A stretch of 64,000 nucleotides of DNA from an uncultured Alphaproteobacteria bacterium (GTDB taxonomy: Bacteria > Pseudomonadota > Alphaproteobacteria > CAAHEQ01 > UBA3637): NCBI GenBank assembly GCA_934234055.1, contig CAKQGY010000002.1:74427-138426 (forward strand), given 5' to 3'. This document shows, piece by piece, positions 17,401 through 41,368 of the stretch. How positions within the stretch are numbered: the first letter of the stretch is position 1; each line of letters starts with the position of its first letter. The position numbers were made by a program, and so were the translations under genes. The notes beneath the pieces are model-generated. The model ran no database searches. It was not told the DNA's origin and worked only from the letters and a program-made list of their open reading frames with translations.

Positions 17401-18825
17401 TCAAAAAGGATATAAATCCGGCAGACCCTTTTTCCGACGCGGACGAGCGGGGGAGACGGACTTGGGCAGAATATAATTGCGTTTTCTTTTATATATCAGT
17501 AAGATAGTTGCGACCATAACGGCCAAAGCAACCCCAAAAAATACCACTCCCCAAATCCACAGCATCCGAGACGGGGGCGGGGGGGGTGCAGGAGAAACGG
17601 GTGGTGCGGGTTGAATCCCAGACGGTTTCGGAGTCGGAAGCGGTTGGGCACGGGCGGGCTTGGGTGTCGGTTGAATCCCGGAAATTTCAATACTTTGCGC
17701 CGGCAGGACGGCGTCTTGCCACCTGTGGGTGCGGGTGTGATACCAGGGCAAATGAATTTCGGGCGTTTGAAGCATACCCGAGCGCAACGGCACGAACACA
17801 AATGTGCGACGGACGAGGCCTTGGATATCGCCGGTGGAAAGCGTGATGTTTTGGCGCGACTCGGCATCGGGATAAATCTGAAAATCCGAGGACTGCGGAA
17901 AAGTAATGGCGGGAAGTTGCTCGGCAGCAAGGCCGGTGGCGGCAACGGTAATTTGGCGGGTCAAAGTCTGATCATTGGCAAGCGGATCGGGGTGCTTGTC
18001 TTGGGCGGTGATGGTAATGTCCTCGGCCGGGAGCCACCACCCCTGCCCTGCTCCCGTCGGTGCAGATGAGACCGCTATGGTCAGCGGATCCGTGGTCAGA
18101 CGAATAGAATTATGGCCACCGCCCAGGCCGTCAAACAATTTACCCTCGGCATACAAAGCACCGGGTGTTTTGGGATAAAGGCCATAGACCTCGAAAGCCG
18201 GAATGGTGAGTGTGCCGGCGCGATTCGGAATAACAGCGTAAGTGCGCTCAAAAATACGGGCGGTGCGCTTGTCCAATGAGCCGAGATAGGAAGTATCACG
18301 ATCCAGCGGTATCAGGCGCGCGCCGTCAATATGCGGTGTGGTCATTTGGGCATTCATCAGACCCACGCCGTCCGAAAGGCGAATCGTGAGGAAGAAGCGC
18401 TGCTGCTCGTAAACGGTATCGACAGAAGTAAAGGCGGACAAGGCAACGGGGATATACTGGGCCTCGGGGGCGGGGGAAACTGTCAATGTGGCCGCGGGAA
18501 CCGTCAAGTCGCCCAACCGTAAATCACCGGTGCTCAGGGTGCCGGCTTGGCGCGGGTAAACATTATAAGTCAGCGTGTAATGGCTGCGATACGAAAGGCC
18601 CGAAGGAAGGGTGCTGTCGGATTTGTCAACGCCGGCAACCAAAAACGAACCGGCAAGCGGCGTCAAATCGGGCTCGGCCGAAAAAGGCTTGTCCGACTGA
18701 AAAACCAGGCGGGTGCTGTCACCCAGGGTAATCGCGGCCGGATCAAAAGAAGCCGCTAATCCTGCCTGTGCCAACGCACTGTGTCCACACAAAAAAACAA
18801 TCAGAAGCAAAAGATGAAACTTCAT
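17401..18825 (-). CDS. batD: BatD-like aerotolerance/oxygen-tolerance protein
   Basis: Signal peptide, a large periplasmic domain, then a Pro-rich region and a C-terminal TM anchor. It is the last gene of the batA-batB/C-batD arrangement. Confidence 0.6.
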   Translation of the reverse strand: MKFHLLLLIVFLCGHSALAQAGLAASFDPAAITLGDSTRLVFQSDKPFSAEPDLTPLAGSFLVAGVDKSDSTLPSGLSYRSHYTLTYNVYPRQAGTLSTGDLRLGDLTVPAATLTVSPAPEAQYIPVALSAFTSVDTVYEQQRFFLTIRLSDGVGLMNAQMTTPHIDGARLIPLDRDTSYLGSLDKRTARIFERTYAVIPNRAGTLTIPAFEVYGLYPKTPGALYAEGKLFDGLGGGHNSIRLTTDPLTIAVSSAPTGAGQGWWLPAEDITITAQDKHPDPLANDQTLTRQITVAATGLAAEQLPAITFPQSSDFQIYPDAESRQNITLSTGDIQGLVRRTFVFVPLRSGMLQTPEIHLPWYHTRTHRWQDAVLPAQSIEISGIQPTPKPARAQPLPTPKPSGIQPAPPVSPAPPPPPSRMLWIWGVVFFGVALAVMVATILLIYKRKRNYILPKSVSPARPRRKKGLPDLYPF

Positions 18826-26155: not shown

Positions 26156-26297
26156 GGTTATTCTCCAAGGGAAAATTATATCACTTTTTGGGAATTTTGG
26201 CAAGAAGAAAAGAAAAACGGAGAGAGAAATGTTACATTCGTGATTTGGGCATTGCCGTGGCAACAGGGGGGGGGACAATAATAAGTTGACTCTTTGA

Positions 26298-26438: not shown

Positions 26439-27161
26439 ATGACTTTTAAGAAAACACTGACTGGGATTGCTTTGGCTGCGGGAGCCATGGTGGCACCGAT
26501 GACCAAAGCCGAGACAAAACCGGCGGATACACCGGCAAAAACTCAGGAAGCCGCGCAAGGTGAAAAAATCACGATGCCGGATTGGATCCCGACAACTGCC
26601 GACGGTAAGTTTGATGAGAAAAAAGCCCATGAACAAGCCGATATGCTGTGGCAAGAAAATGGCGATGCTATTCAGAAATATGCCGATGATGTGGCTGCCG
26701 GTGTGCCGGAAGAAATTGCCTTTACCAAGTTTGCTCACAATTTGGCAAAAGGTGATAAAGAACAAGAAAAACAAATCCTGTCTCTGTATGATGCCGTCAA
26801 AAAAACACGCGAGCAACGCCAAGGGAATATGACAGATGATTCGTTTTTCAAAGCGTGTAATGCAGGAGGGTTGTTTTTTGCATTTTTGGTTTTTTCTTCT
26901 TCTTTGTTAGGAGGAATGAACGATAAAAAAGTGGGGCGCTACTTGAGCATTGCTAATGTTACCGCATTGGCGGTATTCACTCTATCAAAATGGGTAAATC
27001 CAAATCAAGTTACAAAAAACACATTTGTTGACTTTCAAAAACAAATGCATCAAGCCTATACGCAACAAATAAATGGCGATAAGAACTATACGATAACCGA
27101 CATGGCAACGGCCCGGAAGATGATCCAAATGGCGCAAGGCGTCAAAGGAGCAGAAAGATAG
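26439..27161 (+). CDS. Hypothetical secreted protein (signal peptide, Lys/Glu-rich, C-terminal hydrophobic segment)
   Basis: AGGAGG SD 7 nt upstream. The N-terminus MTFKKTLTGIALAAGAMVAPMTKA has a signal-peptide-like profile. Low-GC islet. Confidence 0.55.
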   Translation: MTFKKTLTGIALAAGAMVAPMTKAETKPADTPAKTQEAAQGEKITMPDWIPTTADGKFDEKKAHEQADMLWQENGDAIQKYADDVAAGVPEEIAFTKFAHNLAKGDKEQEKQILSLYDAVKKTREQRQGNMTDDSFFKACNAGGLFFAFLVFSSSLLGGMNDKKVGRYLSIANVTALAVFTLSKWVNPNQVTKNTFVDFQKQMHQAYTQQINGDKNYTITDMATARKMIQMAQGVKGAER

Positions 27162-36976: not shown

Positions 36977-38746
36977 ATGAATCAATATCGTTCACACACT
37001 TGCGGAGCTTTGCGGACGGAAAATGCCGGCCAAACTGTCACTTTATCGGGCTGGGTCCACCGGAAACGCGACCATGGGAATTTGCTGTTCGTGGATTTGC
37101 GCGATAACTATGGAATCACGCAATGCGTCTTGGATATGACCAGTCCGACGGTCTTTAAAATCTTGGAAAAAATTCGCCCTGAATCCGTTATTACCGTGAC
37201 CGGGCAAGTGCTGAAACGCGACGCCTCTACCATCAACCCGAAAATGCCGACCGGCGAAATTGAAATCGGGGTGGAAGATGTTAAAATCCAATCCGAAGCG
37301 TCGGTGCTGCCTCTGCAAATCGTCGGCGATGAAGATGACCTGTCGGAAGAACGGCGATTGACCTATCGGTTCTTGGATTTGCGCCGGGATAAGCCGCATG
37401 AAAATATCCTGTTGCGGAATAAAATGGCGCGATTCGTGCGCGAAAAAATGTGGTCCTTGGGCTTTCCGGAATTTCAAACACCGATTCTGACATCGTCCAG
37501 CCCGGAAGGAGCGCGGGATTATCTGGTCCCCAGTCGGGTGCATAAGGGCGAATTTTATGCGCTGCCGCAATCACCGCAACAATTTAAGCAATTATTGATG
37601 GTGGCGGGGTTTGATCGCTATTTTCAACTGGCTCCTTGCTTCCGTGATGAAGATAGCCGCGCTGATCGCTCGCCGGGCGAATTCTATCAGATTGACTTTG
37701 AAATGTCGTTCGTAACGCAAGAGGAAATCTTTGCGGTCGGGGAAACCCTGATGACGGATTTGTTCCACGAATTCGCACCCAAGGCGACTGTCTCAGACGC
37801 GCCGTTTGTCCATATTCCGTTTAACGAATCAATGTTGACTTTCGGGACGGACAAGCCGGATTTGCGCAATCCGCTGCGCATCAAAGAGGTCTCCGATGTG
37901 TTTGCGGGCTCGGAATTCGGGTTGTTTGCAAATACTGTGGCCGACGGCGGATTCGTTCGCGCGATTCGCACGCCGCAAACGGCCTCTAAACCGCGCAGCT
38001 GGTTTGATAAAATGAACGGCTTTGCCGTGGAGCAAGGCATGGGCGGACTGGGTTATATTACTTTTGCTGCCGAAGGTCCCAAGGGACCGATCGCCAAGAA
38101 ATTGGACGAAGAACGCCTGAAACGCTTGCAAGAAATGACCGGCGCCGAAACGGGCGATAGCGTCTTCTTTGTGTGCGGAAAGGGCGATCCGGTGGTCAAA
38201 TTTGCCGGCACCGTGCGCACTTTGCTGGGACAGGAATTGGGCTTGATTGAAGAAAATGCGTTCCGATTCTGTTGGATTACGGACTTCCCGTTCTATGAAA
38301 AGAACGAGGAAACCGGCGCCCCCGAGTTCTCGCACAATCCGTTCTCTATGCCGCAGGGCGAAATGGACGCTTTGATAAACCAAAATCCGTTTGAAATTAA
38401 AGCCTATCAGTTTGATATGGTATGCAACGGGTATGAAATCTTGTCCGGCGCAATCCGGAATCATCGGCCTGATGTGATGTTTAAGGCCTTTGAAATTGCG
38501 GGCTATGGGCCGGAAGTCGTTAAGGAAAAATTTGCGGGATTGCTGAACGCGTTCCAGTATGGAGCCCCTCCGCACGGGGGTGCTGCGTTCGGGTTTGACC
38601 GGTTGGTGATGTTGCTGACAGATGAAAGTTATATCCGCGAAGTGATTGCTTTCCCGTTCAATCAACAGGCTCAGGATTTACTGATGCATGCGCCGTCGCC
38701 GGTGACCGAAAAACAATTGCGAGAAGTCCATATTAAATTGCGATAA
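36977..38746 (+). CDS. aspS: Aspartate--tRNA ligase
   Basis: 589-aa class II aaRS. N-terminal OB anticodon-binding domain. Motifs [13 protein letters not shown] and GGAAFGFDR. Confidence 0.95.
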
Positions 38747-38792
38747 ACAGGAGGTTCAATTATGCGCATTTATAAGAAATTTACAAGCAATA

Positions 38793-38804
38793 CCCCCCCC
38801 CCCC
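38793..38804. repeat. Homopolymeric C12 tract (candidate slipped-strand phase-variation switch)
   Basis: Twelve consecutive C. It sits between a strong RBS plus ATG (38749-38764) and the pilin-like ORF, which is in the +1 frame relative to that ATG. Confidence 0.8.
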
Positions 38805-38810
38805 GTATGT

Positions 38811-40574
38811 GTGAATAATTCTTGTTTTTCAAGTGGTTATAATGCGTTATTAAAGTATTTTCGTATGAACTTCGGCCGGCGCTCCGGGGCGCGGGGTGCA
38901 AAGGCATGTTCCGAATCGGGTCGCAGTATGGTAGAGATGCTGGGTGTATTGGCGATTATCGGCGTGTTGACCGTCGGTGGGGTTGCCGGGTATAACTTTG
39001 CGATGACGCGGTATCGGGCCAACGAGATTATAGAAAGCGTTAAACAACGCGCCACCGTCGGTAGCGGGCAATACCTGCAAGGTATGGAAGCGATCAACTT
39101 GTCCGAGTTCCCGAACACAATCCTGGAATATGAGACCGAATGGTTTGACGAGGGCTTGAATGGTGAGAAAGACTTGTTCTCTATTGATGTGAAAGAGGTG
39201 CCGCAGGCGGTGTGTCAGGATATCTTGGATCGGAACTGGACTTGGCCGGCGGGGATTTTTGTGAACGAGCGGGCTATTCCCTGCCCCGAGGGGAACAGCA
39301 AGATGACCTTTGTGTTCGCGGGGGACTTGAACGAGCGCACCGACGCGGAGGCGTATGATCCGTGTTGGGGCAAAACCTGCTGCCGCGTAACGGACACAGA
39401 CACTTTGGCGTTTGAAGAAGGCCAAGACCTATCTAATAAAGAATGTAAGAAAACAGCCGCCAACAATTTAACTTGCTGCACCACGGCGGATACGCGGCAG
39501 TGCTATTTTGATCAGGCTTCAATTGACAGGTATGGGCCTCACCAGAACACAATTGCGGACTGCACCAATGACGGACGGCACCGGTGCGACGACAATTTGA
39601 ACTGCGGCTGCACCACGGGGTGCACGAACCCGGACAAGGTGCAGAATCCGAACACCTGTGTGTGCACTTGCCCGACGGGGGTGCCAAACGCCAATGACAA
39701 CGCGTGTGTGGAATGTCTGGCCGATACAGACTGCACCGGCGGCAAAGTATGCAATATGGCAGATAATACCTGTAAGTGTCCGGAGTCGGGCACAGCACCC
39801 ACGAACGCCTGCTATACGGCCACCGAGCACGCAGCGACGGAAGCATGTTCGGCCTATACAACTTACGAGCCCTTGACCTGCACCGAGCCCAAGACCGAAT
39901 GCGACCTTGCCAACAACGTCTGCAAATGCCCGGCGTGCACGGCTGCCGGTATGACCCAAAACGCCGATACCTGTGAATGCACCTGCCCGGGTGGAAAAGT
40001 GTTTAACTCAATAACCCGAAAATGTGTGGAGTGCGTGAATAATACGGACTGCGCCGGGGATAAAGTTTGTAACACGGCAAACAACACGTGCAAATGTCCG
40101 GCGTGCGCGGCTGCCGGTATGACACAAAATGCCGATACCTGCGAATGCAACTGTCCGACAGGTGAGCGCTTTAATAACGAAACGCAACAATGCGAAACGG
40201 ATTGTGCCACAGCAGCAATCCCGACAATACCGGCAGGTTCAGACGTTTTAGGGGTGAAAATTGATAATGGCCGAAAATATGCTGAAGGGAAATGGGTAGC
40301 TGAACTTGGCCCGTTTGAGTGCCCGTATGTGGTTAGTGGTTGTTTATGGCATACCACTAACGAAGTTGTTTATTACATAGATGATGTAGCGGTATATTCA
40401 ATGATGGCTTGTCATGTTGATGAGGGTTGTTACAGCGATACTTGTGCTGCCGCCGGAAATCGGTGCTGGTCAGCCGAGTTACCTGCGGGTAGTCAACTGC
40501 GCGTAAAGTTATGGAAAGGTAAGAAAAATTGGTATGCGCAGTTTAAAGGAAGTCTATACCTGAATAGACCATAG
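38811..40574 (+). CDS. Cysteine-rich tandem-repeat protein with type IV pilin-like N-terminal domain (in OFF frame relative to the upstream ATG at 38762)
   Basis: 587-aa ORF (GTG start). G-RSMVEMLGVLAIIGVLTVGGVAGY matches the prepilin N-methylation/TM consensus (Glu at +5, AIIG, Tyr). It then carries more than 60 Cys. The unit [DTCxCxCPxG..CVEC..TDC..KVCN..NTCKCP] recurs about 3.5 times, including a near-identical 168-bp tandem duplication at 39921 and 40089. Confidence 0.6.
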   Translation: MNNSCFSSGYNALLKYFRMNFGRRSGARGAKACSESGRSMVEMLGVLAIIGVLTVGGVAGYNFAMTRYRANEIIESVKQRATVGSGQYLQGMEAINLSEFPNTILEYETEWFDEGLNGEKDLFSIDVKEVPQAVCQDILDRNWTWPAGIFVNERAIPCPEGNSKMTFVFAGDLNERTDAEAYDPCWGKTCCRVTDTDTLAFEEGQDLSNKECKKTAANNLTCCTTADTRQCYFDQASIDRYGPHQNTIADCTNDGRHRCDDNLNCGCTTGCTNPDKVQNPNTCVCTCPTGVPNANDNACVECLADTDCTGGKVCNMADNTCKCPESGTAPTNACYTATEHAATEACSAYTTYEPLTCTEPKTECDLANNVCKCPACTAAGMTQNADTCECTCPGGKVFNSITRKCVECVNNTDCAGDKVCNTANNTCKCPACAAAGMTQNADTCECNCPTGERFNNETQQCETDCATAAIPTIPAGSDVLGVKIDNGRKYAEGKWVAELGPFECPYVVSGCLWHTTNEVVYYIDDVAVYSMMACHVDEGCYSDTCAAAGNRCWSAELPAGSQLRVKLWKGKKNWYAQFKGSLYLNRP

Positions 40575-40640
40575 GTGATTGTGAGACGGCAAGTGGTAGA
40601 ACAAGATTTTACCACTTGTGAGGTATGGTGAGGATATAAT

Positions 40641-40750
40641 GTTTTGTGGATTGCCGCGGCCTGACGGCCTCGCAATGACAGAAGGACTTCATTGCTTAAT
40701 GGATTGCCACGAGACGCAAAGCGTCTCTCGCAATGATGGGAGGGAGGAGG
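40641..40750. repeat. Two tandem subtype-2 palindromic repeat copies (F1 40641-40678, F2 40694-40750)
   Basis: GTTTTGTGGATTGCCGCGGCCTGACGGCCTCGCAATGA and GCTTAATGGATTGCCACGAGACGCAAAGCGTCTCTCGCAATGATGGGAGGGAGG. Confidence 0.7.
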
Positions 40751-40789
40751 CGTTGGCGGATCAAAGATTGCGCAGTTCGTCAGAATGGC

Positions 40790-40826
40790 AACAGATAATA
40801 AAAAAGGGAGGGGTGCAAGGCCCCTC
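40790..40826 (-). terminator. Intrinsic terminator for ssb (hairpin GGAGGGG-N7-CCCCTCC followed by a U-run on the minus strand)
   Basis: On the + strand an A-run precedes the 7-bp GC-rich stem. Confidence 0.5.
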
Positions 40827-40897
40827 CTTGGTAAAGTTAAAATCAGCGACAGGCAAGCCCCAAAAAAAACGGGCTGAGGCCTTGTGCCGGTCTGAAA

Positions 40898-41368
40898 CTA
40901 GAACGGGATTTCGTCATCAAATCCACCGGCCGTCGGAGCCGAATCCCAGCCGTTTGCTGCCGATGAATCCGATGCCGGTGTGCTGTCCATCGCCGGAGCC
41001 GAATCACCCGATTGCGCGCCACGGCTGTCCAACATCACCAGTTCGCCCCGATAAGCACCCAAGACAATCTCGGTTGAAAACTTGTCCTGGCCGGAAGCAT
41101 CGGTGAACTTGCGCGTTTGAAGTGCGCCCTCTACATACACCTTGGAACCTTTTTTCAAGAAACGCTCGGCAAAGTCCGCCAAGTTCGTGTTAAACACAAC
41201 CACGCGGTGCCATTCGGTTTTTTCCTGGCGCTCGCCACTTTTATCTTTCCAACTGTCAGAAGTGGCGACAGATAAATGAACAATTTTTTGCCCCGCATTC
41301 GTATGCCGAATCTCGGGATCGCGACCCAAATTACCCACCAAAATCACTTTGTTAATACTACCAGCCAT
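40898..41368 (-). CDS. ssb: Single-stranded DNA-binding protein
   Basis: OB-fold N-terminus (NKVILVGNLGRDPEIR) and an acidic C-terminal tail ending DDEIPF. Confidence 0.95.
   Translation of the reverse strand: MAGSINKVILVGNLGRDPEIRHTNAGQKIVHLSVATSDSWKDKSGERQEKTEWHRVVVFNTNLADFAERFLKKGSKVYVEGALQTRKFTDASGQDKFSTEIVLGAYRGELVMLDSRGAQSGDSAPAMDSTPASDSSAANGWDSAPTAGGFDDEIPF

Follow-up and report, generated by a model that had tools for sequence, protein, structure and literature searches.

Phase variation of adhesins through homopolymeric tracts is a textbook phenomenon in mucosal pathogens of the genera Neisseria, Haemophilus, Campylobacter, Helicobacter, and Bordetella. To our knowledge, few cases are documented among uncultured commensal gut lineages, for which invertible promoters are better known. 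The closest analogue of the locus described here is the neisserial pilC system, the tract of which was reportedly placed by Jonsson, in 1991, in the signal-peptide-coding part of the gene. PMC5953494 (citing Jonsson et al. 1991) describes a G tract of 9–20 nt in the reading frame of pilC1 and pilC2 of Neisseria gonorrhoeae and N. meningitidis; for the Neisseria opa genes, the same source lists CTCTT/CTTCT repeats in the part that codes for the leader peptide. In Bordetella pertussis, the promoters of fim2, fim3, and fimX carry a strain-polymorphic poly-C of 10–19 nt, and changes by one C alter expression (PMC1891110, PMC10172299). Here we analyze a 64,000-nucleotide stretch of DNA (the window) from an uncultured alphaproteobacterium (assembly GCA_934234055.1, contig CAKQGY010000002.1), in which a run of 12 C residues lies at the 5′ end of a gene for a type IV pilin-like protein, just downstream of aspS. 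This tract is probably a simple-sequence contingency switch in the leader-coding region of a type IV pilin-like adhesin gene, with the window carrying an OFF allele.

As in pilC, a G/C homopolymer of 9–20 nt and strain-variable length stands at the 5′ coding end of the gene for a type IV pilus-associated adhesin, where frameshifting would turn the gene ON or OFF. PilC is no pilin, however, and has an ordinary signal peptide, whereas the present tract falls in the unusually long prepilin leader (about 55 aa) of a modular pilin-like protein; in addition, the host is an uncultured gut alphaproteobacterium and the module is fused to several gene bodies. The Bordetella fim genes likewise tie a length-polymorphic poly-C to fimbrial subunits, but theirs is a promoter tract that acts on transcription of chaperone-usher fimbriae, whereas this one lies 3′ of the start codon and would act on the frame. 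In opa, as here, a simple repeat in the leader-coding region sets the frame of a surface adhesin from a paralog family with variable bodies; in contrast to our homopolymer and pilin-like protein, the opa repeat is a pentamer and the product an outer-membrane beta-barrel. The mechanism is already known. The novelty lies in the lineage, uncultured gut Alphaproteobacteria; in the gene family, modular Cys-rich pilin-like adhesins with a leader of about 55 aa; and in a switch module that appears to be portable.

The elements of the putative switch, in window coordinates, are as follows.

38749 to 38754, plus strand: Shine-Dalgarno (SD) sequence AGGAGG, 7 nt 5′ of the ATG at 38762, by direct sequence reading
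38762 to 38792, plus strand: start codon and pre-tract leader codons (MRIYKKFTSN T..), supported by paralog homology and by the start that gene callers chose in copies L022, L028, L024, and L029
38793 to 38804, plus strand: C12 homopolymer, the hypermutable element, 31 nt after the SD-preceded ATG; OFF at C12
38816 to 38818, plus strand: TAA closing the 18-codon OFF-phase open reading frame (ORF)
38805 to 38864, plus strand: post-tract leader module, which reads VCVNNSCFSSGYNALLKYFR when translated with the pilin; it is conserved among the alleles without exception and recognizable in diverged relatives
38865 to 38867, plus strand: internal ATG without SD, the annotated start of the 569-aa database protein P0001 and the 5′ junction of a variable body

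The frame opened by the ATG at 38762 reads ATG CGC ATT TAT AAG AAA TTT ACA AGC AAT ACC CCC CCC CCC CGT ATG TGT GAA TAA and translates to MRIYKKFTSNTPPPRMCE before the stop. The long ORF extends from the GTG at 38811 to 40574 (587 aa), and the offset of 49 nt between the two starts (38811 − 38762) places it in the +1 frame relative to that ATG. Loss of one C or gain of two (C11 or C14) fuses the ATG frame with VCVNNSCFSS... of the pilin ORF. A first-pass annotation, made from the letters alone, had described this same SD, ATG, tract, and stop together with the frame relationship, and each is present as described. In the 60 AT-rich nt 3′ of the tract, the pilin frame alone is open, in every allele. 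The tract is the sole G/C run longer than 9 nt in the window. C12 occurs once, against 0.01 expected from 100 dinucleotide-preserving shuffles; it is non-random.

The proposed mechanism runs as follows. Translation would start at the ATG at 38762, served by the AGGAGG just past aspS, and the ribosome would read through the tract as a proline run and on through the conserved leader (VCVNN...) up to the prepilin cleavage site, ESG/RS (the slash marks the cut). Slipped-strand mispairing during replication would alter the number of C residues. Where pre-tract segment and tract together make a multiple of three, as with C11 or C14 here, the full precursor would be produced (ON); with the remaining lengths, translation would end after 17–18 codons (OFF). 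Switching may be frequent and reversible within a clone, and the OFF phase would yield little or no protein. The proline run of the ON phase, PPP(P), is a stalling motif dependent on EF-P.

The first-pass annotation had suggested a comparison of orthologous loci. Searches anchored on AspRS and the members of its 90% cluster yielded 14 more copies of the aspS–pilin junction, 15 including the window. Single-nucleotide polymorphisms (SNPs) in aspS define eight lineages with 0–31 differences in 1770 nt (at least 98.2% identical), among which seven tract configurations occur, representing all three frames. The readable alleles are given below as pre-tract length, tract, and predicted phase.

Window, L005, and L007: 31 nt and C12; OFF
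L031: 31 nt and C13; OFF, the other out-of-frame phase
L023: 31 nt, C14, and TT; OFF
L030 and L032: CAC10 (33 nt and C10); OFF
L006: 31 nt and C14; ON
L022 (GCA_977942485.1): 31 nt and C14; ON
L028 and L029: 31 nt, C13, and T; ON
L024: 30 nt and C9; ON

L024 is in frame although both its pre-tract segment and its tract differ in length. The OFF alleles all terminate after 17–18 codons. In L022 and L028, the 376-aa ORF that begins at the upstream ATG is the annotated gene, and a partial gene is likewise called from that ATG in L024 and L029. Lineage pairs that differ at 0.2–1.7% of flanking sites all differ in the 12-nt tract stretch, except L006 and L022 (both C14), which indicates that the tract is hypermutable; as there are seven configurations among eight close lineages, it must change far faster than its flanks. 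The SD is retained in all orthologous alleles, as AGGAGG or AGGGGG.

Phase-variable genes are recognized by a G/C homopolymer of about 8–9 nt or more within the translated 5′ region. At this locus, a homopolymer of slip-prone length lies within the translated 5′ region, its length is polymorphic among close genomes while the flanks are conserved, and the length changes toggle between an intact full-length ORF and an early stop. The tract is not invariant at 12 C: orthologous tracts of C9, C10, C12, C13, and C14, spread over three frames, support the earlier proposal of frame-dependent ON/OFF switching by slipped-strand mispairing. The assignment of C12 to the OFF phase also gains support, since the C14, C13 plus T, and 30-nt plus C9 alleles are in frame and two assemblies annotate the gene from the upstream ATG.

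Three further copies are truncated. Two of them, L025 (C13 or longer) and L027 (C12 or longer), break off inside the tract, and the third, L026, stops at the first C. Their aspS SNPs place L025 with L022 and the other two with L023. Overall, six of the nine Logan contigs, all independent, end in the tract or at most 21 nt after it (L006 4844, L007 4831, L024 4345, L025 4329, L026 3869, L027 1866). When ssb was used as a downstream handle, it was found in 10 places, but all contigs except the ERZ28613987 scaffold break before the tract, mostly inside the 3′ half of the pilin gene, and that scaffold (L012) is the same contig as L005. As a result, this route added no new tract alleles.

Paralogs and relatives point to the upstream ATG as the gene start. 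The paralogs P0006 and P0015 (MRIFSKFSGNAGESG/RS) begin with MRIFSKFSGN and P0007 (MCIFNKFSKYTAESG/RS) with MCIFNKFSKY, all matching the MRIYKKFTSN of the window; P0007 and P0015 share a 139-kb contig with P0001. At the DNA level, paralog locus L003 has TTGACA-16-TATAAT, AGGAGG, and ATGCGTATTTTTAGTAAGTTT, which align with AGGAGG...ATGCGCATTTATAAGAAATTT of the window. Judged by these alignments, the ATG at 38762 is homologous to the real start of the paralogs.

The most telling layout is that of L033, which encodes P0138 and is a more distant relative in a different genomic context. Its order is TTGACA-17-TATAAG, SD, ATG, 21 nt, C12, GTATGTGTGAATAAT... (VCVNN...), and ESG/RSLTEML, with no second ATG before the cleavage site, so that the sole possible leader ORF encloses the tract. 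P0019 is also without an internal Met. The in-frame module M..(P)n-VCVNN-x15-20 heads P0009, P0136, P0011, P0138, and P0019, of which P0011 is without the proline run. Beyond these, a scan of GTDB species representatives gave only four loci (Alphaproteobacteria bacterium HGM16760, UBA3637), none with the module, and among JGI metagenome contigs neither a scan for the tract and its flanks nor one for the family gave matches.

Some of the evidence weighs against a switch in the reading frame and lends itself to three other explanations. According to the first, the gene starts at the ATG at 38865 and the tract, sited in the promoter or upstream region, alters spacing or phasing in the manner of the C-stretch in Bordetella fim promoters. 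A perfect TATAAT stands at 38838–38843, 21 nt 5′ of that ATG, and the motif AAGTGG(G/T)TATAAT is also present at the promoter of the L003 paralog. In several alleles, the in-frame ATG at 38865 coincides with the point where the variable body is joined; indeed, every variable body brings an ATG exactly at that point. The TATAAT and the junctional ATG could leave room for some tract-independent expression. We nevertheless consider a transcriptional switch unlikely. No −35 element is found 16–18 nt from the TATAAT, and a promoter and terminator scan of the plus strand from 38300 to 39000 found neither. The tract would fall at about −46 to −57, outside the spacer, and blastn finds no homology between 38805–38864 and other paralog promoters. 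In L033, promoter and SD lie 5′ of the ATG–tract module, TATAAT is replaced by TATAAA, and there is no internal ATG.

The first-pass annotation had also offered TTTACA (38780–38785) as a −35 element through which the tract might act on promoter spacing. This suggestion did not hold up: the plus strand yields no promoter, the hexamer reads CTCACA or CTTACA in other alleles, and at least 28 nt separate it from any −10-like hexamer. Nor does the locus have the arrangement of the promoter-spacer class (Bordetella fim, Haemophilus influenzae hif), in which the repeat sits between or just 5′ of the −35 and −10 elements; in L033, the promoter lies 5′ of the ATG. Frame-dependent translation from the ATG at 38762 is preferred because of the L033 layout, the lack of an SD at the ATG at 38865, the lack of a plus-strand promoter, and the unconserved TTTACA. 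The TAA of aspS (38744–38746) ends 2 nt before the switch SD, so the pilin-like gene is probably co-transcribed with aspS, on read-through transcripts. Separately, the segment 38805–38864 was considered as a captured paralog promoter, with a 13-nt motif as sole support, and rejected: blastn-short of 38747–38935 against the paralog loci matched only the conserved part coding for ESGRSMVEML.

The second explanation treats the tract as a relic, hypermutable but neutral or in decay. On this view, OFF alleles would be pseudogenes or be expressed constitutively from the internal ATG, in-frame alleles would be coincidental, and no switching would occur. The proportion of ON lineages (four of eight) is not significantly different from the neutral 1/3, and the interrupted tracts CAC10, C13T, and C14TT resemble tract decay. 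Wherever assemblies agree fully in aspS they also agree in the tract, with no variation within a strain, though they are perhaps from the same samples. In addition, the post-tract codons of the window and L033 show mostly non-synonymous differences, which suggests that the leader peptide sequence is weakly constrained. A decaying locus is nonetheless hard to reconcile with the readable OFF alleles, all of which keep long intact pilin ORFs (569 or 545 aa) and carry no second lesion. Tracts of at least 9 C persist in every lineage, as well as in a different species and locus (L033), and nowhere does the module interrupt the pilin frame. Some relatives have no alternative start. We therefore regard a relic as improbable.

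The third explanation attributes the length differences to errors made at the homopolymer in sequencing or assembly. Illumina reads are error-prone after long C/G runs, and the many contig ends at the tract could reflect such errors or poor read quality there; they could also stem from samples in which strains or tract lengths are mixed. Different assemblers and pipelines, however, agree within each lineage (the window with L005 and L007, L028 with L029, L030 with L032). Linked substitutions (C to A, C to T, and pre-tract changes) further distinguish the alleles, and slippage noise cannot be their source. An artefact is accordingly very improbable, and a contingency switch in the leader-coding region remains the preferred account of the tract.

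The protein behind the switch is read as a modular type IV pilin-like adhesin because of its ESG motif, its architecture in an AlphaFold2 (AF2) model, and its Foldseek matches. The relevant features are as follows.

38913 to 38942, plus strand: prepilin-type processing motif ESG/RSMVEML, from alignments
38922 to 40574, plus strand: predicted mature pilin-like adhesin, from the AF2 model and Foldseek

Within the motif, ESG/RSMVEMLGVLAIIGVL, residues G19 (−1), R20 (+1), and E24 (+5) are invariant among 63 homologs. The protein thus has the leader ending in Gly, the Glu at +5, and the ensuing hydrophobic helix of about 20 residues by which prepilins are recognized. Neither curated model for the type IV pilin class, TIGR02532 or PF07963, is matched: the prepilin N-terminal model TIGR02532 stays below threshold (10.2 bits versus a cutoff of 16.3, E 0.55), and a Pfam search of the protein returned no domain match. 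The Cys-rich repeat TIGR04201 is just below its cutoff (24.6 versus 25 bits). JGI and NCBI annotate short homologs that share this N-terminus as PilE or type II secretion system protein.

In the AF2 model (mean confidence score, pLDDT, 78), a 50-residue N-terminal helix (22–71) is followed by a beta-sheet head, a Cys-rich stalk, and a C-terminal jelly-roll; pLDDT exceeds 90 over residues 41–130 and is mostly 84–95 on to about 160. The long alpha-1 helix packed on an antiparallel beta-sheet, the hallmark of the pilin fold, is present in the model. The top Foldseek matches in the PDB are full-length TcpA and the type IVb pilin of enterotoxigenic Escherichia coli (ETEC), with probabilities of 0.99–1.0 and E values of only about 0.01. 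The N-terminal 190 aa are predicted to superpose on TcpA of Vibrio cholerae and the ETEC CFA/III-type pilin, with which the protein also shares G at −1, E at +5, and a long leader. In contrast to these type IVb pilins, its sequence-model scores are sub-threshold, its +1 residue is Arg, and it has about 400 extra residues (Cys-rich stalk and jelly-roll). On this modelling, it looks less like a major subunit than like a modular or tip pilin-adhesin.

The C-terminal domain (40287–40571, P0001 residues about 475–569) is a predicted jelly-roll for which Foldseek finds C1q/TNF-like and CBM35/CBM6 folds, and it differs between otherwise similar alleles (P0001 versus P0003 and P0005). From its modelled fold, the domain would fit a ligand- or carbohydrate-binding tip. 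We infer that the product is a surface, pilus-borne adhesin. No prepilin peptidase or pilus machinery is encoded within the window, where the genes are housekeeping only. The 569-aa product from the ATG at 38865 is identical to P0001, which comes from the 139-kb contig, part of a metagenome-assembled genome (MAG), and the named relatives of P0001 belong to ‘Alphaproteobacteria bacterium’ MAGs, including the human-gut isolate HGM16760. Exact look-ups of P0001 and P0007 returned no record, and a literature search on pili of gut Alphaproteobacteria gave nothing relevant.

The gene bodies behind the switch are interchangeable between strains of the same species. The cassette and its neighbors are as follows.

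36977 to 38746, plus strand: aspS, aspartate--tRNA ligase (NCBIfam NF001750 at 7e-241, Pfam tRNA-synt_2), directly 5′ of the switch
38862 to 40896, plus strand: strain-variable cassette, from blastn of the window against L022, L028, and L030; flanks about 97–99% identical
40898 to 41368, minus strand: ssb (Pfam SSB), the convergent downstream gene and 3′ cassette boundary

Between the window and L022 or L028, identity is about 99% up to 38861, the pilin bodies are unrelated, and homology resumes at ssb near 40897. The 5′ breakpoint falls exactly at the internal ATG at 38865 and the 3′ breakpoint at ssb. Depending on the strain, the gene at the aspS locus encodes 569, 376, or 545 aa, the L030 body (545 aa) being a third type. 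The same bodies also occur with other leaders. For example, the P0136 body, behind the switch module, is at least 90% identical to P0003, the leader of which differs (MITSQQ...). Likewise, in ERZ15610549 the bodies P0005 and P0004 (78–89% identical to P0001 in best local alignments) are found away from aspS and behind different leaders; the aspS locus of that assembly is occupied by the 376-aa gene. Most assemblies break inside the pilin-like gene. Together, the body swaps, the sharing of bodies between leaders, and the assembly breaks point to frequent recombination among paralogs.

Two other kinds of repeat occur in the leader and upstream regions of the family. An (AC) repeat 5′ of the paralog genes P0004 and P0002 has 15 units in one assembly and 11 in another (L002 257–286, L004 12–33). 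It follows a TTGACA...TATAGT-like element, about 100 nt before an SD and ATG, and is the second kind of variable simple repeat in the family. Imperfect palindromes of the form ‘cattgcgag...gcaatc’ occur in many leader regions (L002 412–450, L004 165–205, L011 2290–2460); these are hairpin repeats resembling repetitive extragenic palindromic (REP) elements, translated within long leaders such as ...ICHCERPFWTRGNP...

Two shorter G runs occur elsewhere in the window. A G9 tract at 26266–26274 lies in a 284-nt divergent intergenic region, between a minus-strand ORF from 26155 (MNKKILL..., no Pfam match) and a plus-strand gene at 26440 (MTFKKTLTGIALAAG..., signal-peptide-like, no Pfam match) that has TTGACA-17-TATAAT about 100 nt downstream of the run. 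It could be a second, promoter-proximal contingency tract; about 0.4 runs of G9 or C9 are expected by chance in 64 kb. A G8 run at 17579–17586, in the 3′ part of a BatD-like gene (17401–18825, minus strand) of a BatA-D/VWA/TPR cluster, is probably due to chance.

The locus can be read from metagenomes, which provide ON and OFF alleles from eight lineages of one species. It is therefore a practical marker with which the on/off state of a surface structure could be followed through time series of human gut metagenomes. A further lesson concerns annotation: in OFF alleles the gene is silently called from the internal ATG, which makes the switch invisible at the protein level.

More tentatively, the SD–ATG–polyC–VCVNN leader may be a portable switch module that recombination has put on many modular pilin-adhesin genes, with the aspS locus resembling an expression site and phase variation combined with antigenic variation of pilus-tip adhesins. 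We hold this to be possible rather than likely. It would draw together the unrelated bodies that strains of one species have behind one switch, the body that is found both with the module and without it (P0136 versus P0003), and the (AC)11–15 repeat 5′ of other paralogs. Its logic would be comparable to that of Neisseria pilE/pilS plus pilC, but its construction is different. If the module is indeed portable, an uncultured alphaproteobacterium of the human gut would possess a combined phase- and antigenic-variation system.

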